From Planctomycetota bacterium (lineage in GTDB: Bacteria > Planctomycetota > SZUA-567 > H5-PLA8): a DNA stretch of 64,000 nucleotides. Both the position numbers and the translations under genes were made by a program. The first letter of the stretch is position 1. Every line of letters starts with the position of its first letter. This document shows, in pieces, positions 8,164 to 28,926 of the stretch. The stretch lies in assembly GCA_038227875.1 (NCBI GenBank), contig JBBRPR010000003.1, forward strand, positions 197,028 through 261,027. The letters are read 5' to 3'. A model generated the notes under the pieces. It searched no databases, was not told the DNA's origin, and was given only the letters and a program-made list of their open reading frames with translations.

Positions 8164-10149
8164 GTGGCACTGTCGCGCCGCAGCACCAAAACGGGACACA
8201 AGCCCGCTCCCGCCGCCCCTGCCGCTCCGGCCGCTGATGACAGCGAAGTCGAAGAAGTCTCGTCGGCCGACGAAATCAGCTCCGAGCCCGAAGAAGTGAT
8301 GGCCCCGGCTCCTGCGCCCGCTCACGGAAACAATCCCCGCGCAGCTCGAGCCAGTGGTGCGACGGCGCAGCCGCGGACCACCCCCTCGATGCGCCCGCCC
8401 AAACGCAAATCCCCCAGCGGCCGGCGCAAGGAAACTCCCTCTCACGGCGGTGAAGACGGTGGCAGCGAAGGCTTGACGCGCTCGGCCCGCAGCACCACGC
8501 GCGGCGGGGCCGGAAGAGAAGGGGAATCGATCGGAGCTCTGCGGCGGCGCGGCTGGTCGCTGGCGATGAAATTCTCGATCTTCACCCTGCTGGTCTCCGT
8601 CCTGATCACCATGCTCTTTGGCGTCTTCTCGATCCGCGACCTGCGCGCTCACATGCTCGAAGAAATCATCCGTTCCGGCTACCAGGACGTGCTGGTCCTG
8701 AACGCCTTCGGCCAGCACGTGGTCAAGGACATGATCGGCAAACGCGACGCGGAATTTTCCAGCCTCGTCGGCCGCTACCGCGACCCGGCCAATCCCGAGT
8801 ACAAAAAGGACCGCGATTACCTGCGCCGCATCCGCGACGGCGACCCGCGCATCCAGGACGTGGCCATCTTCGGATCGGCCAGCGCCTCAAACGACCCGGC
8901 CTCGCCGATCGTGCGCGCCTCCGACGGCGACGCCACGCCTTCCACGGCCAACAGTTTCACTCACGGGCAGCTGGTGCAGACCAACTACGCCGACAAGGGT
9001 GCCAACGTCTACTGGATCGAATACGGCGGCAAGAGCTGCCTGCTGTTCCGCGTGCCGCTGGAACCCGCTCCGGGCACCGATTCCGAAAAGATGTATTCGT
9101 CTGCCAGCATTGTGCTCTCGGCCAGCGCCATCGATGAAGAGGTGGGCAAGCTGACTAAAAATCTGGTCATGGTCGGGCTGCTGTTTGTCGGCGCCGGCGT
9201 GGGCCTCTCGATGGCGATGGGCTTCCGCATCACCCAGCCGATCAACGGCCTGGTCGAAGACATCAACATCGTCTCGCAGGGCGACCTGGACCACGAGAGC
9301 ACCGTGCCCAGCGAAACGCAGGACGAAATCGGACTGCTGGCGATGGCCTTCAACCGCATGACGCGCAACCTGCGCGAAGCCCGCGAGAAGGAACGCGATT
9401 CGGAGCGCATCGCCAGCGAACTGAATACGGCTCAGGCCATTCACGCCAAGCTGATGCCTGAAAAACTGCCCAACCTGCCGGGCATCGACATCTCCACCGC
9501 CTACCACTGCGCCAAGGAAGTGGGCGGCGACTACTACGATTTCATCCCCGTCGGCGACGCCGAACATCTGGCCTTCGTGGTGGCCGACGTGGCCGGCAAG
9601 GGCATCCCCGGCTCGATGGTGATGGGGCAGATGCGCACGGTCCTGCGCATGATGGCCGTCAACAACATGTCGGCGATGGATGTGCTTTCCAAGACCAATT
9701 TCCACGTCGCGCGCGACATCAAGCGCGGCATGTTCGTCACCGCCATGTACGCGATTTTAAATCTGCGCACCCGCGACATGACCGTGGCCTCCGCCGGCCA
9801 CAACCCGATGCTGATCTGGCGCGCCGCCACCAACACGATCGAAAAAGTGCGCCCCAACGGCATCGCTTTAGGGTTCGACAAGGGTCCCGTCTTCAACCGC
9901 ACCATCCGCGAACAAAAGGTGAGGTTGCTCCACGGCGACCGCGTGGTGCTCTATACCGACGGCGTGGTCGAAGCGATGAACGAAGACCGCGACGAATGGG
10001 GCGACGAAGCGCTCGACGCCTTTACTCTGAAATACGCCACCGCCCCGTCGAACGAATACGTGCGCTTGCTGGTCAAAGCGCTGGAAGACCATAAAGGCCG
10101 CGCCGAACAGCACGATGATATTACGATCACCACGTTCCGCATCGTGTAA
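8164..10149 (+). CDS. Membrane HAMP + PP2C/SpoIIE phosphatase (RsbU-like)
   Basis: Two TM segments, HAMP (DEIGLLAMAFNRM), VGGDYYD, ADVAGKG, AGHNP, YTDGVVEA and DDIT motifs. Confidence 0.9.
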   Translation: MALSRRSTKTGHKPAPAAPAAPAADDSEVEEVSSADEISSEPEEVMAPAPAPAHGNNPRAARASGATAQPRTTPSMRPPKRKSPSGRRKETPSHGGEDGGSEGLTRSARSTTRGGAGREGESIGALRRRGWSLAMKFSIFTLLVSVLITMLFGVFSIRDLRAHMLEEIIRSGYQDVLVLNAFGQHVVKDMIGKRDAEFSSLVGRYRDPANPEYKKDRDYLRRIRDGDPRIQDVAIFGSASASNDPASPIVRASDGDATPSTANSFTHGQLVQTNYADKGANVYWIEYGGKSCLLFRVPLEPAPGTDSEKMYSSASIVLSASAIDEEVGKLTKNLVMVGLLFVGAGVGLSMAMGFRITQPINGLVEDINIVSQGDLDHESTVPSETQDEIGLLAMAFNRMTRNLREAREKERDSERIASELNTAQAIHAKLMPEKLPNLPGIDISTAYHCAKEVGGDYYDFIPVGDAEHLAFVVADVAGKGIPGSMVMGQMRTVLRMMAVNNMSAMDVLSKTNFHVARDIKRGMFVTAMYAILNLRTRDMTVASAGHNPMLIWRAATNTIEKVRPNGIALGFDKGPVFNRTIREQKVRLLHGDRVVLYTDGVVEAMNEDRDEWGDEALDAFTLKYATAPSNEYVRLLVKALEDHKGRAEQHDDITITTFRIV

Positions 10150-17680: not shown

Positions 17681-18523
17681 ATGGCGTTCAGCGAACAGAA
17701 TCACGATACCCCATGGACATTCGTCCCGTCCATGGTTGCGCTTGCACGGAACATATATAAAATTGCGGTGATGAAAAAGCGCGCGGCCGAACCACATCCG
17801 GATTTCAGCTTTGTGGCGTATGCCACGATCACGCACCACCGCGGCTGGCGCTACCCGTTTCACCGTCACGCACACCACGAAGTGATCGCCGTGGAGAGCG
17901 GCGCGATGACCGTGGAGATGAATGGAACGCTCTACCGCGCCCGCGCCGGCGATGTCCTCTTCTACCGCGCGGGGATGGCTCACAAGGAGGACGCCGAGGT
18001 CAAGGCGCTGGCGACGACGCTGTGCCTGTCCTATTCCGGTGAAGCGTTCGTTGGTGAGATTCTTCCGCAGACCAAAGACCGCTCCGGCCGCGTGCGCCAG
18101 ATGCTGCGCTGGATCCACGACGACATGAACCTGCCCGCCGAATCTCGCGGCGCGCGTGGCACGGCCCTGATCGCCGCTCTCGTCGCCGAACTCGCGTTTC
18201 TAGCTCAGCCCCGCGATGACCCGCTGGTTGAAGGCACTCGCCGCTACGCCCGCGAACACCTGGCGGAAAAAATCACGCTCGACGACCTGGCCTTGCAGGC
18301 CGGCATGAGCAAATACCACTACCTGCGCCGCTACCACGCGCTGACCGGCCTGACCCCGATGCTCGACGTCCGCCGCCAGCGCCTGGAACACGCCCGCAAC
18401 CTGATCGTCTCCACGTCCTGGCCCTTGCGCGTGATCGCCGATCGCGCCGGTTTCAACACCGAATTCCACCTCGCCAAGCTCTTCCGGCAGCATCTGGGGA
18501 TCACACCGAGTTCCCTGCGGTAG
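17681..18523 (+). CDS. AraC family transcriptional regulator (cupin + double HTH)
   Basis: HRHAHHE cupin, TLDDLA..AGMSKYH and FRQHLGITP; divergent from the sugar genes. Confidence 0.9.
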   Translation: MAFSEQNHDTPWTFVPSMVALARNIYKIAVMKKRAAEPHPDFSFVAYATITHHRGWRYPFHRHAHHEVIAVESGAMTVEMNGTLYRARAGDVLFYRAGMAHKEDAEVKALATTLCLSYSGEAFVGEILPQTKDRSGRVRQMLRWIHDDMNLPAESRGARGTALIAALVAELAFLAQPRDDPLVEGTRRYAREHLAEKITLDDLALQAGMSKYHYLRRYHALTGLTPMLDVRRQRLEHARNLIVSTSWPLRVIADRAGFNTEFHLAKLFRQHLGITPSSLR

Positions 18524-18649
18524 CCGGATAGCAAGGGTTTAAAAAAGTATACAATCGTAGCCCGAAAAAAATCGCCCGCGGATTTCGCTCAAGGATTAAA
18601 CGTTTTTAAACGATTCCTTACTTTAAGCTTTAACCTGCGAGGATCCGCC

Positions 18650-19273
18650 ATGGCCGACGTTCAGCTCCGCACGTACTGTTTTCTCGACAGCATGCAGCCC
18701 CAGTTCGCATCGCTGGAAGCCTCGACGGCTCAGGGCTTTCTCCCCGTCACCGGCCAGGCGGCGCTCTATGTTGAAGTCGGCCCGGGCATGGCCGTGCAGC
18801 GGCTGATGGACATCGCCTGCAAATCCACGGCGGTGATGCCCGGCACGCTGGTGGTCGAGCGCTCCTTTGGGCTGATGGAAGTCCATCACGACGACCAGGG
18901 CGAAGTGCAGCAGGCCGGCGCGGCGGTGCTTGCGGCGCTGGGCTTGAAGGAAATTCAACGCATCAAGCCGCGCGTGACGACCAGCACGATCATCCGCAAG
19001 GTCACCGATTACCACACGATGCTGATCAACCGTTCGCGCCGCGGCAACATGCTGCTCGGCGGCCAGACGCTTTACATTTTGGAAGTCGAACCCGCCGCGT
19101 ACGTGACGCTGGCGGCCAACGAAGCGGAAAAAGCCAGCCACGTCAACCTGCTGGAACTGCGCGGCGTCGGCGCCTTCGGCCGCTTGTTCCTCGGCGGTGA
19201 TGAAGCCGACGTCGTCGTCGCCGCGGAAGCCGCGGAAGCGGCGATCAAGGCGGTGACGGGAGCGGAGAAGTGA
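18650..19273 (+). CDS. BMC shell trimer, permuted tandem domain (CcmP/CsoS1D-like BMC-T)
   Basis: LRTYCFLDSMQPQ, VVERSFGLMEVH, LAANEAEKA and GAFGRLFL motifs. Confidence 0.9.
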   Translation: MADVQLRTYCFLDSMQPQFASLEASTAQGFLPVTGQAALYVEVGPGMAVQRLMDIACKSTAVMPGTLVVERSFGLMEVHHDDQGEVQQAGAAVLAALGLKEIQRIKPRVTTSTIIRKVTDYHTMLINRSRRGNMLLGGQTLYILEVEPAAYVTLAANEAEKASHVNLLELRGVGAFGRLFLGGDEADVVVAAEAAEAAIKAVTGAEK

Positions 19274-19410
19274 AGGACTGAGGACTGAGGAGAACCGCCG
19301 CTGACGCGGGTTTTTCCAACCGGGAAATTTTTAAGCGAAGCGCCGCGCTGTAACCTCAGTCCTTCTGTTAAAAACGACAAAGTGCACCACAAACACGGGA
19401 GACACACCAC

Positions 19411-19701
19411 ATGGCAGACGCCCTCGGCATGATCGAAACGCGCGGATTCGCGGCGCTGGTGGAAGCCAGCGATGCGATGGTCAAGGCGGCGAAGGTCGAC
19501 TTGATTGGCTTTGAAAAAATTGGCGGCGGCTACGTCACGGCCATCGTGCGCGGCGATGTCGCGGCGGTCAAGGCGGCGACGGAAGCCGGCGCGCGGGCGG
19601 CGGAAGCCATCGGCGAAGTCGTCAGCGTCCACATCATCCCGCGGCCGCACGTCAACGTCGACGAGGTCCTGCCGCTGGGCCGCAAGTCCGCCAAGAAGTA
19701 A
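19411..19701 (+). CDS. BMC shell hexamer (BMC-H, EutM/PduA-like)
   Basis: [26 protein letters not shown] and HIIPRPH motifs. Confidence 0.97.
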
Positions 19702-19725
19702 GACTGGCTTCCGCTGCGTGTCAGT

Positions 19726-19757
19726 CTGACTTTCGGGCCACGTGGCCCGAAGGTCGG
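19726..19757 (+). other. Strong intergenic hairpin between BMC-H and the aldehyde dehydrogenase
   Basis: CTGACTTTCGGGCCACGTGGCCCGAAGGTCGG, no U-tract. Confidence 0.55.
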
Positions 19758-19789
19758 GCCGCTGTGTCACCGGACTTCCGAGGTGTTCG

Positions 19790-21421
19790 ATGCAACTGGA
19801 CGACAGCAAAGTCGCGGAACTGGTCTCACGCGTGGTGGCTCGCTTGAAGCAAAACGGGGCGGCGCCATCGCTGGCCAAGGCGCCAGCACCGAAAGTCGCA
19901 CACGCTCCGGCAGCGGAGCACACCGGGAGTACCAACTGGGTGCGTTCCAAACCCGCGCGTGCCGACGATCGGCCCATCCAGCGCAAGACGGGTTTCTCGT
20001 CCTCAGGACCCACTCCCGCGGTCGCGAAAAAAACGGCTGCGCCTGCTTCGACGTCAGCACCCACGGTCGCGAAGGCTGCTCCGGCCACCGGCGACGGCGT
20101 GTATACCGATGTCGATGCCGCCTGCCGCGCGGCCGAACGTTCCTATCAGGAACTCACCAAGCTCGGCTTCAACGCGCGCTTCAAACTGATCGAAGTTTTC
20201 CGCGCCGCGGCGCTGGCCAACATCGAACGCTGGTCGGTGGAAGCCGCGCGCGAAACCGGCATGGGCCGCGCTGAGGACAAGCTCAAGAAAAACCGTCTCG
20301 TCACGCTGCGCACGCCCGGCCCGGAAATCCTGGTCAACCCCACGACCTTCGCCGGCAGCGACGGCATCACCAGCATCCGACTCGACCCCTGGGGCGTGAT
20401 CGCCTCGATCATTCCCTGCACCAATTCCACCGAGACGGTGATCAACAACGGCATCGGAATGCTCGCCGCCGGCAACGCGGTGGTCTTCAATCCGCACCCG
20501 GTCGCGAAGAAAATTTCCTGCGACGCCGTCCGGACGCTCAACCAGGCATTGTCCGCCGCCGGATTTCCCAAGGAACTGCTCTGCATCCTCGCCGAACCGA
20601 CCGTCGAGTCGGCAAACGCGCTGATGAAACACCCGCTCACGGGCATGGTCCTGGTCACTGGCGGCGGAGCCGTCGTCGACGTGGCGATGAAGTGCGGCAA
20701 GCGTGCCGTCTGCGCCGGGCCGGGCAACCCGCCCTCGGTGGTCGACGAAACCGCGTGTCTCGACCGCGCCGCCAAGGCGCTGGTCTCCGGCGCCTCGCTG
20801 GACAACAACGTCGTCTGCACCGACGAGAAAGCCGTCATCGCCGTCGCCTCCATCGCCGACGCGCTGAAACAGAAAATGCTCGCCCGGGATTGCGTCGAAG
20901 TCACTGGCGCGAACATCGAAAAGCTGACGAAGATCATCCTGAGCGATCCGGGCAGCCCGACGCATCACGGTATGACCAACAAGAAATTCGTCGGCAAGAA
21001 TCCCTCGGTGATCCTGCGCGAAATCGGCATGAACGTCGACGACCGCGTGCGCCTGGCGATCGTCGACGTCGAGAAGGATCACCCGTTGATCTGGACCGAG
21101 CAGCTGATGCCCGTGCTGCCGATCTGCCGCGTCAAGGACGCCGACGAGGCGATCACCTTCGCCGCCGCCGTCGAAGGTGGACGCCGCCACACCGCGTCGA
21201 TCCATTCGCAGCGATTGGACCGCATCACGCGCTTCGCCAACACGCTGAACTGCTCGATCTGCGTCGCCAACGATTCCAACTACGCGGGCTTGGGGCTCAA
21301 CGGCGAGGGCTACACCAGTTTCTCGATCGCCACGCCGACGGGCGAAGGCCTGACGACCGCGCGCACGTTCTGCCGCGAGCGGCGGCTGGCGGTGTGCGGG
21401 GGAGGGCTGGGGAGGGGCTAA
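19790..21421 (+). CDS. CoA-acylating aldehyde dehydrogenase (EutE/PduP-like) with N-terminal encapsulation peptide
   Basis: N-terminal helix [17 protein letters not shown], Pro/Ala linker, [27 protein letters not shown] and ATPTGEG motifs. Confidence 0.92.
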
Positions 21422-21423
21422 CA

Positions 21424-21588
21424 GCATTGCGGATTTCGGATTGCGGATTGCGGATTGGACGGCGCCGCTCGGTTGTGTGTCCGGACGCCGAAGCTTTGAG
21501 AGGACGGATTTGTGGAACGTAAAAGCGCTGTGAAGTTTTCGACTCTCGCGGTTCCAATCCGCAATCCGCAATCCGAAATCCGCAATGC
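21424..21588. repeat. Perfect 36-bp inverted repeat made of ATTGCGG heptamers, between convergent genes
   Basis: 21424-21459 is the exact reverse complement of 21553-21588. Confidence 0.9.
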
Positions 21589-21591
21589 CCT

Positions 21592-22125
21592 TCAAGCCAC
21601 TGCCACCACGACAATGGACGCAATCAGAATGACCAGCGCCACCGACAACTTCACCGCGACGCCGACGGCTCGGCCGAGTACCGCGCCGAAGGCGACCTGC
21701 AGGTTGGGGTCGAGTTTTTTCTGGTGGCGCATTTCGCCGAGGATCGCGCCGACGAAGGTGCCGATGAACGAGGCGACGACCGAACCGATCACGGGAATTG
21801 GCACCAGCCCGCCGAAGAAGGCTCCACCAAAGCCGCCGATCAGCGCGCCCCACGCGGCGGATTTCGAACCGCCGAATTGCTTCGAACCGAATTGGCCGGC
21901 CAGCAGATCGATGCCTTCAGCGACCAGACCGACGAGAAAAAATCCGGCCACCCAGTACCACGGCATCATTTTACCGCTAGTGCCCATGCAGAGGATAAAC
22001 GCGGCGGCGGCCTGCACCAGCGGACCGGGCAGACCGAAGGGCACGATGAAAACGCCGGCGAGCTGCACCAGGAAGAAGCCGATCAGCGCGAGGCTGCCGG
22101 CGAGTACGTGGAGGAAGTTTTGCAT
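21592..22125 (-). CDS. DUF456 family membrane protein
   Basis: GLPG, FGGSK..AWGALIGG, GAILGE and AFGAVLGR pattern. Confidence 0.8.
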   Translation of the reverse strand: MQNFLHVLAGSLALIGFFLVQLAGVFIVPFGLPGPLVQAAAAFILCMGTSGKMMPWYWVAGFFLVGLVAEGIDLLAGQFGSKQFGGSKSAAWGALIGGFGGAFFGGLVPIPVIGSVVASFIGTFVGAILGEMRHQKKLDPNLQVAFGAVLGRAVGVAVKLSVALVILIASIVVVAVA

Positions 22126-22213
22126 CGTCGTCGCTGCCCGAATGGAACCTTACGCAGAGTACCGCCGCCCGGGCCGCTCACCAACTGGAATTAACGGAAG
22201 CTGGAATTAACAG

Positions 22214-22987
22214 ATGTCGCTGACCCAAGTTCCCTGGACCGAACGCGAACTGCGCAAGCAGATCGTCAAAGCGTGCACCGCTCTGGCGCGCAAGAATCTT
22301 GTCGCGGCCACCGATGGCAACGTCTCCGCGCGGCTGGGCTACGACCGGGTGCTGGTGACGCCGTCGAACGTCAACAAAGGCGAAGTCGGCGAGCTCGACA
22401 TTCTGCTCTGCGACATGGACGGCCGCAAAGTCCGCGGGCGCGGCGAGTCGAGCAGCGAAGTCCACGTCCATCTCGCCGCTTACCGCAACCGCGAAGACAT
22501 CCACGCCGTGGTTCATGCGCATCCACCGGTCGCCACCGCGTTCACCTTCGCGGGCCTGGCGGAAATCTTTCGCACGCCGATCATCCCGGAGGTCGTAGCG
22601 CAGATCGGCCCGATTCCGTGCGTACCCTACATTCAGCCCGGCACGCGCGAACTGGCGGAAGCCGTGGGCAAGGCCTTTCGCGATTGCGACATCGTGATGA
22701 TGGCTCAGCACGGCGCGGCCACCGGCGCGAAGGATCCGTGGTCGGCCTACCTGCGCATGGAGAAGCTCGAACACTTCGCCACCATTGTGAAAACCGCGCG
22801 CGAACTGGCCGCCAGCGCCGGGCAGGAGATCCGGACCTTGAGCGACGCGCAGGTCGACGCGCTGCGCGCCGGGTACGGAAAAGGGAAATTGAAAAGCAGT
22901 AGTGTCCCAACGGAAGTAAGCAGCGATGCGATGGTCGAACGAATCGCCGCCGCTGTTCTTGCAAGGATGGGAAGGGCGGCCGGTTGA
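22214..22987 (+). CDS. Class II aldolase (FucA-like) with C-terminal encapsulation peptide
   Basis: DGNVSAR, TPS, SSEVHVH, VVHAHP and QHG motifs; terminal helix DAMVERIAAAVLARM. Confidence 0.92.
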   Translation: MSLTQVPWTERELRKQIVKACTALARKNLVAATDGNVSARLGYDRVLVTPSNVNKGEVGELDILLCDMDGRKVRGRGESSSEVHVHLAAYRNREDIHAVVHAHPPVATAFTFAGLAEIFRTPIIPEVVAQIGPIPCVPYIQPGTRELAEAVGKAFRDCDIVMMAQHGAATGAKDPWSAYLRMEKLEHFATIVKTARELAASAGQEIRTLSDAQVDALRAGYGKGKLKSSSVPTEVSSDAMVERIAAAVLARMGRAAG

Positions 22988-23177
22988 GAATTGGTGCCAG
23001 TGTGATCGCGCGAGAATGGAACTCGGTTGTGTGGCGTTGTGATCGGGAAGTTCGCGAACGACAGCGTTGGATACATTCATGAGAACCCGCCCTATGCGAA
23101 GCTCCAAAGAACATCCGCTCTCGGAACGCGCCACTCCCAAGAGCCAAGAGCCAGGAGCCAAGAGCTGCCCCACAATC

Positions 23178-23516
23178 ATGACCATCGAACAGGTCGCCGC
23201 CTATCTGCAGCTCCATCCGCAGGTCGTTTACCGCCACGTGCGTGCCGGGACTCTGCCAGCCAGCCGCATTGGGCGGACGATCCGATTTAAGAAGTCGGTG
23301 CTCGACGAATTTCTGGAAAAAGGCGCGTGGGAATTTGCTCATCAGTATCTTACGTACCTGGCGCGCGTGAAGTCCGGCAGCGTGTCCGTTGCCGGTGAGA
23401 TGCCGAAACCCGCGACCCTCACTGCCCGCGCCACTAGCGCCGCCGTGCCGATGGCATCACAGACTCCGCCGGAAATTCCGGACGCACTCAAGCAATTCTC
23501 CGCGGACATCGACTAA
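23178..23516 (+). CDS. Excisionase-like HTH DNA-binding protein
   Basis: MTIEQVAAYLQLHPQVVYRHVRAGTLPASRIGRTIRF; flanked by CCAAGAG heptamer arrays at 23137-23165 and 23541-23571. Confidence 0.8.
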   Translation: MTIEQVAAYLQLHPQVVYRHVRAGTLPASRIGRTIRFKKSVLDEFLEKGAWEFAHQYLTYLARVKSGSVSVAGEMPKPATLTARATSAAVPMASQTPPEIPDALKQFSADID

Positions 23517-23576
23517 CCATGGCGCACCGCCCAGCCACCCCCAAAAGCCAAGAGCCAAGAGCCAGGAGCCACCCAC

Positions 23577-23837
23577 ATGATCCTCGGTAAAATCGTCGGC
23601 ACCGTCACCTCCACGCGTAAACAGGAGACGCTGGGCGGCTTCAAATTCCTGCTGATCCAGAAGCGCATGAAGCAGGGCGACGGCGATGCCGCGCTGGGCG
23701 AAATGTTCGTCGCGGTGGACCTCACCGGCGCGGGCACCGGCGAAGAAGTCATCGTCGCCACCGGCCGCGCCGCGCGCATCGCGATGGGCAAGGAGGATCT
23801 GCCAATTGACGCCGCGGTGATTGGGATTGTGGATTAG
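23577..23837 (+). CDS. BMC vertex pentamer (EutN/CcmL, BMC-P)
   Basis: MILGKIVGTVTSTRK, VAVD..GAG.GE.V and DAAVIGIVD motifs. Confidence 0.95.
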   Translation: MILGKIVGTVTSTRKQETLGGFKFLLIQKRMKQGDGDAALGEMFVAVDLTGAGTGEEVIVATGRAARIAMGKEDLPIDAAVIGIVD

Positions 23838-24001
23838 CGGCGCGAAAATCTTCCGCCGCCGCCGCGACCGCCTTGCACAGTCAAGAGTTCTCCCTGCTCA
23901 TGCGGCGGCCTGATTGCATACGCACGCGTCCCGAATCCCGTATCCCCAATCACGGCCGTTATTCACTTCACCCCGCGCGCATTTTCGATAAGACATTCCC
24001 C

Positions 24002-24604
24002 ATGCATGTCATGACTGAAAACGAGATCCGCAATGTCGCCAGCCGTATCGAAGCGGGTGGGACCTTCACTGTTCCGCCGGAGACGATCCTGACGCCGCTG
24101 GCGCGCGATTACCTCCATGGGCGCGGGATTCAGGTCGTCGATCAGCACGGCGGAAAGTCGCACGCAAAGCCCGCCGCGTCCGCGCCGTCGTCCGATGACG
24201 CGCTGGTCAGCGCCGTCGCCGACGAAGTCAGCCGCATCCTTCGCGAACAGCAGGCGCCGCAGGGAAAGTCAGCCGCGCCCGCCGATCCCGCAGCCGTGGT
24301 GGCGCGCAAGACCATCGCCGGTGAAGGCACGTCCAACCGCGCCGTAGTCTGGGCGATCGGCGGCGACCGGCCGGGCATTCTCGCCGACGTCGCGGAACTC
24401 CTCAGTCGCCACAAGGCCAACATTCTCGAAATCAACCAGACCATCCTCAGCGGCGTCTTCGCCATGGTCGTAATCGTGGACCTCAAAGGCGTCACGCTGG
24501 CCTTCGCGGAATTCAAGGCGGAGCTCGAAGCGCTCGGCAAGAAGCTGGGTGTGAATCTCTCGGCGCAGCGGGATGAGATTTTTCAGTACATGCATCGAGT
24601 GTGA
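24002..24604 (+). CDS. ACT-domain protein (UPF0237-like) with N-terminal TPLARD domain and putative encapsulation peptide
   Basis: C-terminal GGDRPGI...NILEINQTIL...QRDEIFQYMHRV ACT domain; N-terminal TENEIR...ILTPLARDYL; internal helix DDALVSAVADEVSRIL. Confidence 0.8.
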   Translation: MHVMTENEIRNVASRIEAGGTFTVPPETILTPLARDYLHGRGIQVVDQHGGKSHAKPAASAPSSDDALVSAVADEVSRILREQQAPQGKSAAPADPAAVVARKTIAGEGTSNRAVVWAIGGDRPGILADVAELLSRHKANILEINQTILSGVFAMVVIVDLKGVTLAFAEFKAELEALGKKLGVNLSAQRDEIFQYMHRV

Positions 24605-24608
24605 CGGG

Positions 24609-24695
24609 GAGTTTTGAAATTTGAGTTTTCAGTTTTGAGTTGTGTGGCGACCGGCGATAGCACAACTCAAAACTAAAAACTCACAACTAAAAACT
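24609..24695. repeat. Inverted heptamer arrays (TTTTGAG/CTCAAAA)
   Basis: GAGTTTTCAGTTTTGAGTTGTG ... CACAACTCAAAACTAAAAACTC. Confidence 0.8.
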
Positions 24696-24780
24696 GCCCT
24701 ACCGATCCCGCACTGGGTTTGTGCGGCGTATGGAGTAATCTATTTTCATGCGCGCAGGATGGCGTTTGGGAGCGGAAACT

Positions 24781-26235
24781 ATGCTTAAAGCACGGCAGGC
24801 GTCCTTGATTGTCGGTGAAACCAGCTCCTCGCGGCTGCTGGAAGGAATCGGCGTCAACTGGTGCGACGCGTTTGGACTCGGCGGCGAGACCGGGATGGGG
24901 CAGCGCGGGATGCCGCTCAACACGCCGGCCATTCCGCTGCTCGACAATATTTCCGGCTGGGAGACGGTGCTCGATGAGCTGACCGTGCTCAAGGCCGGCT
25001 GCATCCGCTTCATGCTGCCGCCCGAAGGCTTCATCACCAAGCGCGGCACGATGGATTTCGACTGCCCGCACTTTCAGCGCCTCGAGCGCCTGAACGCGTG
25101 GGCCGGAGCCAATGGCGCGAGCATCATTCTCGATACGATTCACGTGCCGCATCATCTTCAGGTCAAGGGCGAGGACGGTCCCGGCGTGGCGCTGAACAAC
25201 CGCGCGGCGCTCGACCCGACGACCTTCGCCGAGAAATTTGCCGGTCCGCTCTTGGATTACTGTCTTTCCGAGCGCGGCTGGAACCAGATCCGCTACTACA
25301 GCCCGATCAACGAGCCGCTCTACGGCGGCATCTACCACCATCCCAAGGGCGACACCTACCGCGCGTACGCCGGGCTGATGGCTTCGCTGCGCAAGGAACT
25401 GGTCGACCGCGACCTGGTGCCGCAGCGCATTTCGCTGATCGGACCGTCGGCGCCGTCGGTGCAGCAGTGGCCGGTTCCCGACCTGCACGCGCGCGGGCTG
25501 GACATCGACCCGCTGCTCGACGCTTACGATCAGCACGAATATTCCGCACGCTTCGACGGCGATCCGCCGAATTCGAACGGGGATTCGATTCCGATGAGCG
25601 AACTGATCGAGCGGCATCTCACGCCGCACGTCAAGTACGCCGAATCGCGCGGCAAGCCGTTTCTCATCACGGAAATGAAGCACTCCTATTTTGGCGCCAA
25701 GCAGGGCGATCCCAACGGCCCCGCCACGCATGACGCGTTTCTGCTCGACGCCGAATTCGCGATCCGCGCGATCAACGCCGGTGTGCAGGGGTTGATGCGC
25801 TGGAGCTTCCTCAACCCCGGCGACATCGACGGCCACTGGCAGTTTTTGGAAACGGCGGATAATTCGTACCGGCGCTGCGAGAACACGTTCTACGGTTACG
25901 CCACGCTGATCCGCTACGCGCGCCCGCACGCGGATGTGCTGCAGAGTTCCGTGCAGAGCAATTTCTACCCGTGGCCGCACGTCCACGCCTGCGCGTTGCG
26001 CAAGTCGCCGCAGGGCGATGTGACGGTGCTGGTCGTCAACGACCATCCCAGCGAGCAGATCGAACTGAACGTGAAGCTGCCCGCCTCGCTACGCAAGAAG
26101 GTCAACGTGATTCGCAACGACCGCACCTTGAAGCACGCCAAGGTCGACGAAGTGAAACGCGAATTCACCGACCGCCTCCCGCCGCGCAGCCTGACGGCGT
26201 ATACGACCTTGGAGTACGATCCGTTGACTCGTTGA
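24781..26235 (+). CDS. Putative clan GH-A glycoside hydrolase (TIM barrel + C-terminal beta-sandwich)
   Basis: PINEP acid/base motif, DQHEY, FLITEM nucleophile motif and C-terminal TVLVVN...LPPRSLT; family not resolvable by eye. Confidence 0.7.
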   Translation: MLKARQASLIVGETSSSRLLEGIGVNWCDAFGLGGETGMGQRGMPLNTPAIPLLDNISGWETVLDELTVLKAGCIRFMLPPEGFITKRGTMDFDCPHFQRLERLNAWAGANGASIILDTIHVPHHLQVKGEDGPGVALNNRAALDPTTFAEKFAGPLLDYCLSERGWNQIRYYSPINEPLYGGIYHHPKGDTYRAYAGLMASLRKELVDRDLVPQRISLIGPSAPSVQQWPVPDLHARGLDIDPLLDAYDQHEYSARFDGDPPNSNGDSIPMSELIERHLTPHVKYAESRGKPFLITEMKHSYFGAKQGDPNGPATHDAFLLDAEFAIRAINAGVQGLMRWSFLNPGDIDGHWQFLETADNSYRRCENTFYGYATLIRYARPHADVLQSSVQSNFYPWPHVHACALRKSPQGDVTVLVVNDHPSEQIELNVKLPASLRKKVNVIRNDRTLKHAKVDEVKREFTDRLPPRSLTAYTTLEYDPLTR

Positions 26236-26245
26236 TAGCTTTGCT

Positions 26246-26332
26246 GGGTAGTTTTTAGTGATGAGTTTTGAGTTTTGAATTGATCTTCTGCAACACAACT
26301 CAAAACTAATAACTCAAAACTCAAAGCTACCC
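26246..26332. repeat. Inverted heptamer arrays (TTTTGAG/CTCAAAA)
   Basis: GGGTAG...GAGTTTTGAGTTTTGA ... CAACTCAAAACTAATAACTCAAAACTC...CTACCC. Confidence 0.8.
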
Positions 26333-26430
26333 TTCATACTTCGTATCCACCTTCAGTGAACTTGCACCGAAGCTCACTTCACTCCAAAATCTCTCCCTTC
26401 ATTCATTCAACAGGACTACAGGAACCGCTC

Positions 26431-27780
26431 ATGTCGCTTTCGTTTGAAGAAATTTTCGAAACCATCCGCATGATCGGGATGGAACATCTCGATATTCGCA
26501 CCACGACGCTGGGCATTTCATTGCTGGATTGCGCCACGGGGTCGGGGGAATCGACGGCGCGCAATGTTTACGAGAAGGTCGTGCGCATCGGTTCGGCGCT
26601 GGTGCCGGCGGCCAAGCAGATTGAGCTGGAACACGGCATCCCGATCATCAACAAGCGCGTCTCGATCACGCCCGTGGCGCTGCTGGGTGTCGCCGATCCG
26701 CTGCCGATCGCGCTGGCGCTCGACCGCGCCGCGACGGAGATCGGCATCGATTTCCTCGGCGGCTACACGGCGCTGGTCCACAAGGACGTCTCCGCGCCGG
26801 ACAAGGCGCTGATCGCGTCGCTGCCGGAAGCGCTTTCGCGCACCAACCGCCTCTGCGGGTCGGTCAACGTCGGCGATTCGCGCACGGGCCTGAACATGGA
26901 CGCCTGCTTTTCGCTCGGCCGGATGTTGAAGGCCCTGGCCGAAGCGACGCGCGAGAAGGACGGGCTGGGCTGCGCGAAGTTCTGCTCATTCGCCAACGCG
27001 GTCGAAGACAATCCGTTCATGGCGGGCTCGTTTTTCGGGCCCGGCGAAGGCGAGTGCAGTCTTTCCGTCGGCATCTCCGGTCCGGGTGTCGTTGCGGCGG
27101 TGTTGAAAGACATGCCCGGCGCCGATCTGGCGACGTTGTCCGACGCCATTCGCCGCACCGCGTACAAGATTACGCGCATGGGTGAACTGGTCGGCCGCAA
27201 AGTCAGCGAACGGCTCGGCGTGCCGTTCAATATCGTCGACGTCTCGCTGGCTCCGACGCCCGCGCCCGGCGACAGTGTCGGCGAGATTTTCGAAATCATG
27301 GGCTTCGAACGGACCGGCGCGCCGGGTTCGACGGCCGCATTGATGCTCCTGACCGATGCCGTGAAAAAAGGCGGCGCGATGGCCTCCGGGCACATGGGCG
27401 GCCTCTCCGGCGCATTCATTCCTGTCAGCGAAGACCACGCGCTGGCGTCGGCCGCGGCAGAAGGCGCACTCTCGATCGAGAAGCTCGAAGCGATGACCTC
27501 CGTTTGTTGCGTCGGCCTGGACATGGTGATCATCCCTGGCGACACCAGCGCCGAAACCCTGGCCGGCATTATCGCCGACGAATCGGCCATCGGCGTGATG
27601 AACCACAAAACCACCGCCTGCCGCCTGATCCCCGCGCCCGGCAAGAAAGCCGGCGACATCGTCGACTTCGGCGGCCTGCTGGGCTCCGGCCCGGTGATGT
27701 CCGTCTCGAAATTCTCGAACGAGCGCTTCATCCACCGCGGCGGCAGGATTCCGCCGCCGTTGCATGGGATGAGGAACTGA
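26431..27780 (+). CDS. DUF711 / UPF0210 (so-called PFL family) protein
   Basis: ETIRMI..EHLDIRT.TLGISLLDC, INKRVSITP, EDNPFMAG, GGLSGAFIPVSED and EKLEAMT.VC.VGLDM motifs. Confidence 0.93.
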   Translation: MSLSFEEIFETIRMIGMEHLDIRTTTLGISLLDCATGSGESTARNVYEKVVRIGSALVPAAKQIELEHGIPIINKRVSITPVALLGVADPLPIALALDRAATEIGIDFLGGYTALVHKDVSAPDKALIASLPEALSRTNRLCGSVNVGDSRTGLNMDACFSLGRMLKALAEATREKDGLGCAKFCSFANAVEDNPFMAGSFFGPGEGECSLSVGISGPGVVAAVLKDMPGADLATLSDAIRRTAYKITRMGELVGRKVSERLGVPFNIVDVSLAPTPAPGDSVGEIFEIMGFERTGAPGSTAALMLLTDAVKKGGAMASGHMGGLSGAFIPVSEDHALASAAAEGALSIEKLEAMTSVCCVGLDMVIIPGDTSAETLAGIIADESAIGVMNHKTTACRLIPAPGKKAGDIVDFGGLLGSGPVMSVSKFSNERFIHRGGRIPPPLHGMRN

Positions 27781-27783
27781 TTT

Positions 27784-27947
27784 TTATTGCGGATTTCGGA
27801 TTTCGGATTGCGGATGAGTTGGCGACGCTCGGTCAAAGCGCGGTGCGCCGTAGCATCAATTGAAATGATTCGTGGACCGGAAAGTAAAGTTCAAGGACGA
27901 ACTGCCGCAGTTCTAATCCGAAATCTGCAATCCGAAATCCGCAATAA
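27784..27947. repeat. Inverted heptamer arrays (ATTGCGG/ATTTCGG) between convergent genes
   Basis: 27784-27815 pairs with 27915-27947. Confidence 0.8.
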
Positions 27948-27950
27948 TGT

Positions 27951-28388
27951 TCATCCTTCCGTGCTGATCGTCTCCGGCCGCAGCTTCGTCCGCAGCTTAT
28001 CCAGCAGTCCGTTCACGAATGCGCCGGCTTCGTCGGAGGAGTAGCGCTTCGCCAGTTCGACGGCTTCGTTCAGGATGATCTTGTGTGAAGTTTCGGGGTG
28101 CGTGGTCAGTTCGGCCAGGCCCAGACGCAGGATGTTGCGGTCGACGGCGGCCATGCGGTCGATGTTCCAGTTCGTGGCCACATCGGCGATGTCGGTGTCC
28201 AGTTCCGAGCGGTGGTTGATCACGGCGTCGACCAGTTCGCGCGCGAAAACGACGCTTTCCTTTTCCGGCGGCGGCTGCTGATGGCCGGCGTAATCGGAAA
28301 ACGGATAGACATCCTTGCCCTGCAGGACGTCGTGCATGTAGAGGTATTGCAAGGCCAGTTCGCGGCCGGAAGTTCGTGGGTGACTCAT
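27951..28388 (-). CDS. nusB: Transcription antitermination factor NusB
   Basis: RELALQYLY, NWNIDRMAAVDRNILR, NEAVELAK and FVNGLLD motifs; directly downstream of ribH. Confidence 0.96.
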   Translation of the reverse strand: MSHPRTSGRELALQYLYMHDVLQGKDVYPFSDYAGHQQPPPEKESVVFARELVDAVINHRSELDTDIADVATNWNIDRMAAVDRNILRLGLAELTTHPETSHKIILNEAVELAKRYSSDEAGAFVNGLLDKLRTKLRPETISTEG

Positions 28389-28443
28389 GGTGGTTCAAAT
28401 GCCGAATTTCAGGAGCCTCGCGGCTACTTCATTCGTTCCTTAT

Positions 28444-28926
28444 TTATTTGGTTAGCTTGGTCCAAAGGTCGGCCATTTCGATGGCACTGGCCGCGGCTTC
28501 CCAACCCTTGTTGCCGCCTTTTGCACCGGCCCGTTCCAATGCCTGTTCCAGAGTATCGCAGGTCAGGACCCCAAATGCCACCGGAATCCGTGCCTCCAGC
28601 GCCGCCTGCGTCACGCCCTTGGCGGCCTCGCCGGCGACGTATTCGAAGTGTGGCGTGCCACCGCGGATCACGCAGCCCAGTGCGATGGCCGCCTGAAGCT
28701 TCTTGCCGCCGCCCATCGCGCACAGCGCCTGCACCGCGGCCGGCAATTCGTACGCGCCGGGGACGCGGACGACGGTGATGTCCTTCTCGTCGGCGCCGTG
28801 GCGCAGCAGGCAGTCCAGCGCGCCCTGCAGCAGCGGCTCGGTGACCAGCGCGTTGGTGCGCGCGACGACGATGCCAAAACGGGTTCCGGGTTTCACAATC
28901 AAGCGGCCTTCAATGTACGTGGGCAT
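28444..28926 (-). CDS. ribH: 6,7-dimethyl-8-ribityllumazine synthase
   Basis: VPGAYELP, LGCVIRGGTPHFEYV and GNKGWEAA motifs. Confidence 0.97.
   Translation of the reverse strand: MPTYIEGRLIVKPGTRFGIVVARTNALVTEPLLQGALDCLLRHGADEKDITVVRVPGAYELPAAVQALCAMGGGKKLQAAIALGCVIRGGTPHFEYVAGEAAKGVTQAALEARIPVAFGVLTCDTLEQALERAGAKGGNKGWEAAASAIEMADLWTKLTK

Follow-up and report, generated by a model that had tools for sequence, protein, structure and literature searches.

An extended ACT-domain protein encoded beside the shell genes of a predicted aldolase-type microcompartment in Planctomycetota

The DNA examined here (the window) is a stretch of 64,000 nt from a Planctomycetota bacterium (contig JBBRPR010000003.1), and all coordinates are counted from its first letter. 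It includes a cluster of bacterial microcompartment (BMC) genes, and the last gene of this cluster predicts a protein in which an ACT domain of the UPF0237 type is preceded by a long N-terminal extension. ACT domains are ligand-binding regulatory modules. To our knowledge, no function is known for UPF0237 (ACT) and UPF0210 (DUF711), whose genes are widely found as a pair and whose structures have been solved (1zpv and 2ha9). Judged from its sequence, the extension looks like the shell-cargo linker of EutQ from the ethanolamine microcompartment, with ACT replacing the EutQ cupin, and the protein most likely sits on or in the adjacent, predicted sugar-degrading microcompartment. The gene and its segments are as follows.

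24002..24604, forward strand: extended ACT gene (protein P0001), a stop-free open reading frame (ORF) of 200 aa in five segments
24002..24142, forward strand: N-module, residues 1-47, a beta-alpha-beta-beta-alpha-beta module resembling the terminal module of EutQ and EutT (AlphaFold2, NCBIfam, hhalign)
24143..24190, forward strand: variable linker 1, residues 48-63 (family conservation; predicted local distance difference test score, pLDDT, <50)
24191..24247, forward strand: conserved amphipathic helix, residues 64-82, encapsulation-peptide-like (conservation, hydrophobic moment, AlphaFold2)
24248..24337, forward strand: variable linker 2, residues 83-112, with a weak second helix at 96-103 (conservation, AlphaFold2)
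24338..24601, forward strand: UPF0237-type ACT domain, residues 113-200 (NF001220, Foldseek, profile match to 1zpv)

A word-indexed search over 5.8 billion proteins recovered 35 full-length relatives of 187-222 aa that share 47-94% identity with the predicted protein. The members with a taxon label are all Planctomycetota, namely the products of three loci described below (L001-L003) and P0032, which is from a metagenome-assembled genome (MAG). Because 33 of the 35 aligned relatives begin at the same Met, with the common start M-[H/R]-V, the ATG at 24002 was favoured over an upstream TTG at 23873. In the family alignment the mean frequency of the most common residue is 0.75 in the N-module, 0.72 in the helix and 0.84 in the ACT domain, and only 0.26 and 0.34 in linkers 1 and 2, respectively. 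The linkers also vary in length (9-36 and 21-49 residues), and the helix segment has 19 residues in every member. An AlphaFold2 model built on this alignment has a mean pLDDT of 79.7, with a confident N-module (pLDDT >90), disordered linkers and a confident ACT fold. The N-module modelled alone reaches a pLDDT of 86, and the helix is placed at residues 64-83, where the means of ten-residue blocks over 61-90 are 56, 79 and 55. The three-part plan of module, helix and ACT domain is confirmed as real and beyond chance, and is kept across 47-94% identity.

Residues 113-200 match Pfam ACT_6 at 3.5e-11. The NCBIfam model for the stand-alone ACT protein, NF001220/PRK00194, is matched by residues 112-200 over model positions 2-90 of 90 with 92.5 bits (cut-off 74), and by 35 of the 35 family members. 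The predicted fold superposes on PDB 1zpv (Foldseek E 1e-6, target-normalised template-modelling score 0.87, root-mean-square deviation 1.6 A over 82 columns), the family profile matches the 1zpv sequence at 2e-13, and Foldseek with the full model returned ACT structures only. The ORF, ACT_6 and NF001220 thus agree with the initial annotation, which had read the protein from the sequence alone as a UPF0237 ACT protein extended to 200 aa. UPF0237 proteins are single domains of ~90 aa, and the 112-residue extension departs from this form. The usual size quoted in the initial annotation was also correct, as 32 of 60 ACT ORFs recovered from genomes (see below) are 87-90 aa when measured from the first ATG; the longer ORFs mostly owe their length to read-through upstream of the usual start, where an internal Met is found.

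The N-module has no Pfam model and no sequence relative in the PDB. Among the 35 family members, the NCBIfam models that match it are TIGR02536 'eut_hyp' (34 members, best 8.5e-6), EutT (12), EutQ (PRK15457; 9, at positions 4-59) and PduM (3). The matched part lies at the end of the profile in each case, namely 164-205 of 207 in TIGR02536, 6-45 of 267 in EutT, 4-59 of 233 in EutQ and 132-162 of 162 in PduM. Hence the same ~45-residue terminal module as in the extended ACT protein appears to occur in TIGR02536, at the N-terminus of EutT and at the C-terminus of PduM, on hosts that differ. The TIGR02536 scores are 15.9-25.5 bits against a cut-off of 152.6 and cover only the last ~42 model positions, so the ACT proteins do not belong to that family. 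E. coli K-12 eutQ and eutT were used for direct comparison with the family profile. In hhalign, the family aligned with E. coli EutT at P=1.2e-4 (residues 15-46 of both), with E. coli EutQ at P=1.5e-3 (residues 2-51 on 3-51) and with nine EutQ sequences at P=3.2e-4, and the N-module alone aligned end to end with EutQ 1-52 at P=9.1e-6 (probability 83%). The EutQ profile is shallow, as a search with residues 1-100 gave almost only enterobacterial near-copies.

A hidden Markov model (HMM) of the N-module was run on all ORFs, in six frames, of the window and of 61 loci. Outside the family it found only E. coli EutT (6.5e-4) and one ACT protein, from locus L006 (1.4e-3), and none of the other proteins of the four microcompartment loci (the window and L001-L003) carries the module. 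Residues 1-50 of E. coli EutQ and EutT (L061, 21503-23004) are 34% identical to each other, with a pairwise E of 0.005, and the shell-binding module of EutQ therefore appears to head EutT as well, a relationship not mentioned in the accessible text of PMC12487888. Overall, the matches point to a weak but consistent homology of a shared module with EutQ, EutT, PduM and TIGR02536, and not to membership in any of these families. The small domain that the initial annotation had associated with BMC accessory proteins is upheld by these convergent, if sub-threshold, profile matches. Other leads for the extension were discarded. Pfam E3_binding, matched at E 0.035-0.06 in 2 of 4 sequences, was treated as noise, and in the ESM Atlas residues 1-50 reached only unnamed clusters, at scores of 0.76, which gave no lead. 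A representative-library search with residues 1-110 gave six matches at E<=0.001, of which three are family fragments, one is a known member and one is P0161, a divergent protein of full architecture. The sixth, P0160, is a 1470-aa repeat protein and was judged spurious. In that search the extension was not seen joined to any C-terminal domain but ACT.

In Salmonella EutQ, according to the accessible text of PMC12487888 (Sci Adv 2025), residues 1-99 are built of helices H1/H2 and H3/H4 with a flexible region (42-61) between them. Shell binding was mapped there by deletions to H1/H2 (residues 9-41), and H3/H4 are the binding site for the encapsulation peptides of EutC and EutE, with a dissociation constant of ~6-8 uM for EutC 1-20. 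Residues 1-99 suffice to carry sfGFP into the compartment, and loss of any part of this region splits the shell from the cargo. The extended ACT protein and EutQ both consist of a ~45-residue N-terminal module with the same core motif, a variable Pro/Ala-rich linker, one or more amphipathic helices and a globular C-terminal domain. They differ in that the C-terminal domain of EutQ is a cupin (PF06249) where the extended protein has ACT, and in that EutQ has two helices (H3/H4) where only one well-conserved helix is found here. EutQ also belongs to an ethanolamine compartment, whereas the extended ACT protein is predicted to belong to an aldolase-based one in Planctomycetota. The helix region does not align significantly with EutQ, and the parallel therefore rests on homology for the N-module only. 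As the homologous part of EutQ binds the shell in the account given in PMC12487888, the N-module is more likely to be the docking element than the helix alone.

The middle helix includes three invariant residues (A71, E75 and R78) and the window of highest hydrophobic moment in the protein (0.69). An encapsulation peptide is defined as an amphipathic helix joined by a poorly conserved linker and located at a terminus (Kinney 2012 / Aussignargues 2015, in the accessible text of PMC4594438), and the middle helix agrees with this definition in length, amphipathicity and the poorly conserved linker. The encapsulation peptides predicted on the aldolase and aldehyde dehydrogenase of the same locus are likewise conserved amphipathic helices of 17-19 residues with a poorly conserved linker and a similar hydrophobic pattern. 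When 17-mers from 40 window proteins were compared in register (BLOSUM62) with the two enzyme peptides, the middle helix came 5th of 14,929 for the aldehyde-dehydrogenase peptide and 11th of 14,931 for the aldolase peptide. It may itself be an encapsulation peptide, or else bind such peptides as their receptor.

The genes around the extended ACT gene are listed below.

17681-18523, forward strand: AraC-type regulator
18650-19273, forward strand: 207-aa BMC-T-like shell gene (weak Pfam BMC match; 73-74% identical to its counterparts in L001-L003)
19411-19701, forward strand: BMC-H shell hexamer gene (Pfam BMC 1.5e-29)
19790-21421, forward strand: acylating aldehyde dehydrogenase, with a predicted N-terminal encapsulation peptide at ~nt 19799-19849 followed by a long Ala/Pro linker
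21592-22125, reverse strand: DUF456 membrane protein
22214-22987, forward strand: class II aldolase, with a predicted C-terminal encapsulation peptide at ~nt 22925-22975
23067-23516, forward strand: HTH_17 DNA-binding protein, a conserved member of the locus, true start uncertain
23577-23837, forward strand: BMC-P (EutN/CcmL) shell vertex gene, directly 5' of the ACT gene (Pfam EutN_CcmL 1.9e-26)
24748-26235, forward strand: 495-aa protein between ACT and DUF711 (no Pfam family, no PDB sequence match)
26431-27780, forward strand: DUF711/UPF0210 (PF05167 1.8e-169; NF003700 659.8 bits; 2ha9 1.5e-144)

The amphipathic helices at the N-terminus of the aldehyde dehydrogenase (read from the ATG at 19790) and at the C-terminus of the aldolase are kept in the related loci. 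The gene cluster includes an aldolase and an aldehyde dehydrogenase, both with peptides, together with BMC-H, BMC-P and BMC-T, which is the composition of the PVM type. No further microcompartment gene was found among the window ORFs given to Pfam, and these ORFs include no phosphotransacylase, acetate kinase, lactaldehyde reductase or extra BMC-P paralogue. The window, with a single copy of BMC-P, accordingly does not hold the full PVM core; the missing core genes may be elsewhere in the genome. The tree file of Sutter 2021 gives the label PVM to planctomycete BMC-T proteins of 207 and 202 aa. By composition, and not by the classifying HMMs of Sutter 2021, the locus is predicted to be of the aldolase type (PVM type).

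One scan of 185,579 species genomes gave 60 ACT loci. The full-length extended form was found in three of the 60 (L001-L003), all in Planctomycetota MAGs and at 47-55% identity. Their gene order is BMC-T, BMC-H, aldehyde dehydrogenase, aldolase, HTH_17, BMC-P and the ACT gene. The ACT gene is thus directly 3' of BMC-P in all four loci with the full extension whose gene context could be read (the window, L001, L002 and L003), and this adjacency is kept at 47-55% protein identity though the flanking genes differ. The other 57 ACT loci are mostly from Bacillota, and 56 of them have the short form and one (L006) the N-module only. DUF711 is directly 3' of an ACT gene of ~90 aa in 54 of the 57, the exceptions being L005, L018 and L059, the last with its ACT gene at a contig end. 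Searches for shell genes covered 926 kb across all 60 loci and found none near the 57 (planctomycete queries at E<=1e-5; E. coli EutM/N/S/L/K at E<=1e-3), and no DUF711 was found within 10 kb in any of L001-L003. At 4 of 4 loci against 0 of 57, shell genes accompany the full extension, whereas the plain form is accompanied by DUF711. Compared with the stand-alone UPF0237 protein (1zpv), the extended protein scores above the family cut-off, superposes and, in the window, has DUF711 nearby, but it is 200 aa long, adjoins shell genes instead of DUF711 and sits on a long branch.

Two of the 57 loci encode partial forms. In a Bacillota MAG, L006 (3486-3956, forward strand) predicts a 156-aa ACT protein with a EutQ/EutT-type N-module and without the middle helix. 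L005 (9929-10270, forward strand), from the MAG of an unclassified bacterium, predicts a 113-aa UPF0237-type ACT protein to which only an amphipathic helix resembling encapsulation peptides is added, at the N-terminus; the adjoining genes encode a phosphopantetheinyl transferase and a TrkA-type channel. A helix like the middle helix is absent from the remaining 56 of the 57 loci. In a tree of the ACT domain (89 columns, deep nodes poorly resolved), 27 extended members group together (100/99), and the stem of their clade is long, at 1.72 changes per site, which suggests a changed role. The four informative loci all belong to one lineage of the tree. P0161 groups with L005 (86/69, long branches), and the L006 ACT domain groups with a single plain ACT from Bacillota (96/90).

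In the window, DUF711 is 1.8 kb 3' of the ACT gene, with one gene between them. Its 12 closest homologues (P0038-P0049) are 74-94% identical and 429-449 aa long, and all others are <=63% identical; the two of the 12 that have a taxon label are from Planctomycetota MAGs. Neither the window protein nor any of the 12 has a terminal extension, in agreement with the earlier observation that DUF711 has no visible targeting peptide. From indirect evidence we infer that 3 of the 12 share contigs with an extended ACT gene (15,768, 5,001 and 2,757,459 nt, the last being the contig of L001), and that DUF711 persists in the lineage, at a distance from the ACT gene that is short in some members and long in L001. 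A 549-aa protein, P0050, was considered as a fusion of ACT and DUF711, and is really an internal DUF711 duplication of ~100 residues that is probably an assembly artefact. One paper groups DUF711 with ribonucleotide reductase and pyruvate formate-lyase among the ten-stranded barrels. Searchable literature that mentions DUF711, UPF0210 or UPF0237 does not treat function.

Several further features distinguish the window from the related loci or lie between its genes. The DUF456 gene (21592-22125, reverse strand) breaks the cluster between the aldehyde dehydrogenase and the aldolase and is not in L001-L003. The gene for the 495-aa protein is also absent from L001-L003; it has a third-position GC of 0.83, a strong coding signal, and its product matches only weakly, at E 0.0017, the C-terminal part of a model for arabinofuranosidase. 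A Memo-like gene (PF01875) is located between HTH_17 and BMC-P in L002 (4184-5158) and L003 (8634-9524) and not in the window, and L001 has a 163-aa ORF at this position (8931-9422) that matches the last ~115 model positions only. Two copies of a large hairpin with GGATT/CGGATT-type repeats occur at 21424-21588 and 27784-27947, directly 3' of the aldehyde-dehydrogenase stop and the DUF711 stop. In the first, two arms of 36 nt with 100% complementarity enclose 93 nt, and the minimum free energy (MFE) is -99 kcal/mol (z -8.3). Hairpins of a second type, with AGTTTTG-type repeats, are found at 24606-24699 and 26250-26321 (MFE -44.3 and -33.6 kcal/mol, z ~-6.2), 3' of the ACT stop and 3' of the stop of the 495-aa gene. 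These two hairpins bracket the 495-aa gene, as would fit its later insertion between ACT and DUF711 genes that already formed a pair. The HTH_17 gene is flanked, at 23130-23170 and 23534-23574, by the two copies of a 41-nt direct repeat (85% identical) made of GCCAAGAGCC-type units. No Rfam family reached its gathering score in 18000-28500, and a scan for promoters and terminators gave counts at chance level.

ACT proteins have been recorded in microcompartment loci before. Supplementary Data 6 of Sutter 2021 lists an ACT HMM, 'HMM01842act_1_acimic3', for ACI and MIC3 loci with the description 'amino acid binding'. ACT is therefore already counted as a recurrent part of microcompartment loci, with a name that refers to ACI/MIC3 and not to PVM. 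ACT domains go unmentioned in the main text of that paper, and Supplementary Data 6 has no PF05167 row. No paper joining 'ACT domain' and 'bacterial microcompartment' was found in the searchable literature. What we rate as new here is the combination of known targeting parts with a new host domain, in a compartment type without a described EutQ-like organiser.

We give an even chance to the reading in which the extended ACT protein tethers cargo to the shell, docked by a EutQ-type N-module together with a helix of encapsulation type, while its ACT domain binds a ligand. The N-module would dock on the shell, and the amphipathic helix would join the bundle of aldehyde-dehydrogenase and aldolase encapsulation peptides, either as an extra peptide or as a receptor. 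The ACT domain would contribute self-association and a small-molecule site. The protein would then be a tether or organiser between shell and cargo, and a metabolite may govern what it does. Where ACT and DUF711 still interact, DUF711 may be carried with it, which the tether would not require.

Several observations weigh against such a tether. All matches of the N-module to other families are below the curated cut-offs, the hhalign probabilities range from 17% to 83%, and Foldseek against the PDB gave 0 neighbours for the module at E<=0.001. The helix region compared with EutQ 52-112, which includes H3/H4, is not significant (hhalign P=0.14, 9 columns). The initial annotation had likened the helix to those of the dehydrogenase and the aldolase. 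Both of these helices do exist, and the likeness stands for the hydrophobic pattern and the in-register rank, but it does not extend further: the peptides of the two enzymes are terminal while the helix of the ACT protein is internal, following a 47-residue module and a linker, the helix HMM misses both peptides of its own locus, and unrelated helices outscore the middle helix against both. The expectation that extended ACT proteins would occur only with microcompartments was similarly borne out in part. It holds for the full form, which is beside shell genes in 4 of 4 loci, and is doubtful for the parts. The N-module form of L006 sits between the isoleucyl-tRNA synthetase gene and DUF711, and its contig of 4.6 kb includes no shell gene, and the helix-bearing ACT protein of L005 has no shell gene or DUF711 within 10 kb. 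Because of L006 and L005, the specificity of the N-module or of the helix for microcompartments is not proven.

The initial annotation had proposed that the extension targets the ACT domain, which in turn carries the peptide-less DUF711 into the shell, with a ligand controlling the loading. In line with this, the ACT domain still scores as the family of the DUF711 partner (NF001220, 92.5 against 74), DUF711 is directly downstream in 54 of the 57 other ACT loci and 1.8 kb downstream in the window, and the N-module ACT gene of L006 directly adjoins DUF711. DUF711 also appears, on the indirect evidence above, to be kept in the lineage, and its 12 closest homologues lack an extension. Nevertheless, we consider such an adaptor unlikely. 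No DUF711 is within 10 kb in 3 of the 3 related loci while adjacency to BMC-P is kept in all of them, and the long stem of the extended clade (1.72) suggests a changed role. The HMM table of Sutter 2021 (Supplementary Data 6) has ACT for BMC loci and no row for PF05167, and ACT is not known to bind DUF711.

A sensor is a more doubtful proposal and in our view quite improbable. Here an encapsulated or shell-attached ACT protein would bind a pathway metabolite and regulate the aldolase, the aldehyde dehydrogenase or pore traffic, and the extension would be an address label without any structural part to play. The Pfam and NCBIfam matches to a class of ligand-binding regulatory modules are consistent with this, as are the 'amino acid binding' ACT HMM for ACI/MIC3 loci in Supplementary Data 6 of Sutter 2021 and the same context and targeting evidence that favours a tether. 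On the other hand, a docking module together with a helix exceeds the needs of a simple address, and there is no evidence of contact with the enzymes. We know of no ligand or target for UPF0237.

It is very improbable that the protein has no microcompartment role, with the N-module and helix serving ACT/DUF711 or a cytosolic partner and the adjacency to BMC-P reflecting shared regulation or the gene order of the clade, as would suit the L006 and L005 forms without a shell gene, the sub-threshold level of every N-module match to BMC proteins and the derivation of the four informative loci from one lineage: all four families that resemble the N-module are microcompartment proteins matched at terminal segments only, the gene order beside BMC-P is kept at 47-55% identity while the flanks differ, and the helix shares the pattern of the encapsulation peptides of its own locus.

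If the extended ACT protein is indeed such a shell-cargo tether, the N-terminal module of EutQ, which was characterised only in 2025 and for the ethanolamine compartment, may serve for docking more generally. It would then recur here in a compartment of a very different type, joined to a domain that binds a ligand. In a much broader and speculative form, which we regard as improbable, the ~47-residue module would be a portable shell-docking domain across unrelated compartments (EutQ, EutT, PduM, TIGR02536 and ACT). The ACT protein would then be the counterpart of EutQ in the aldolase-type compartments of Planctomycetota, couple cargo to shell under the control of a metabolite and bring a DUF711 protein resembling pyruvate formate-lyase into an aerobic sugar-degrading organelle. 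If true, this would give the UPF0237/UPF0210 pair its first function. The family is small, with ~35 sequences. For engineering, a short folded docking module combined with a helix could offer a second, possibly regulatable, route for loading cargo. For the protein pair itself, which has no known function, the link to a microcompartment would be a first cellular address, and one that opens direct experiments.

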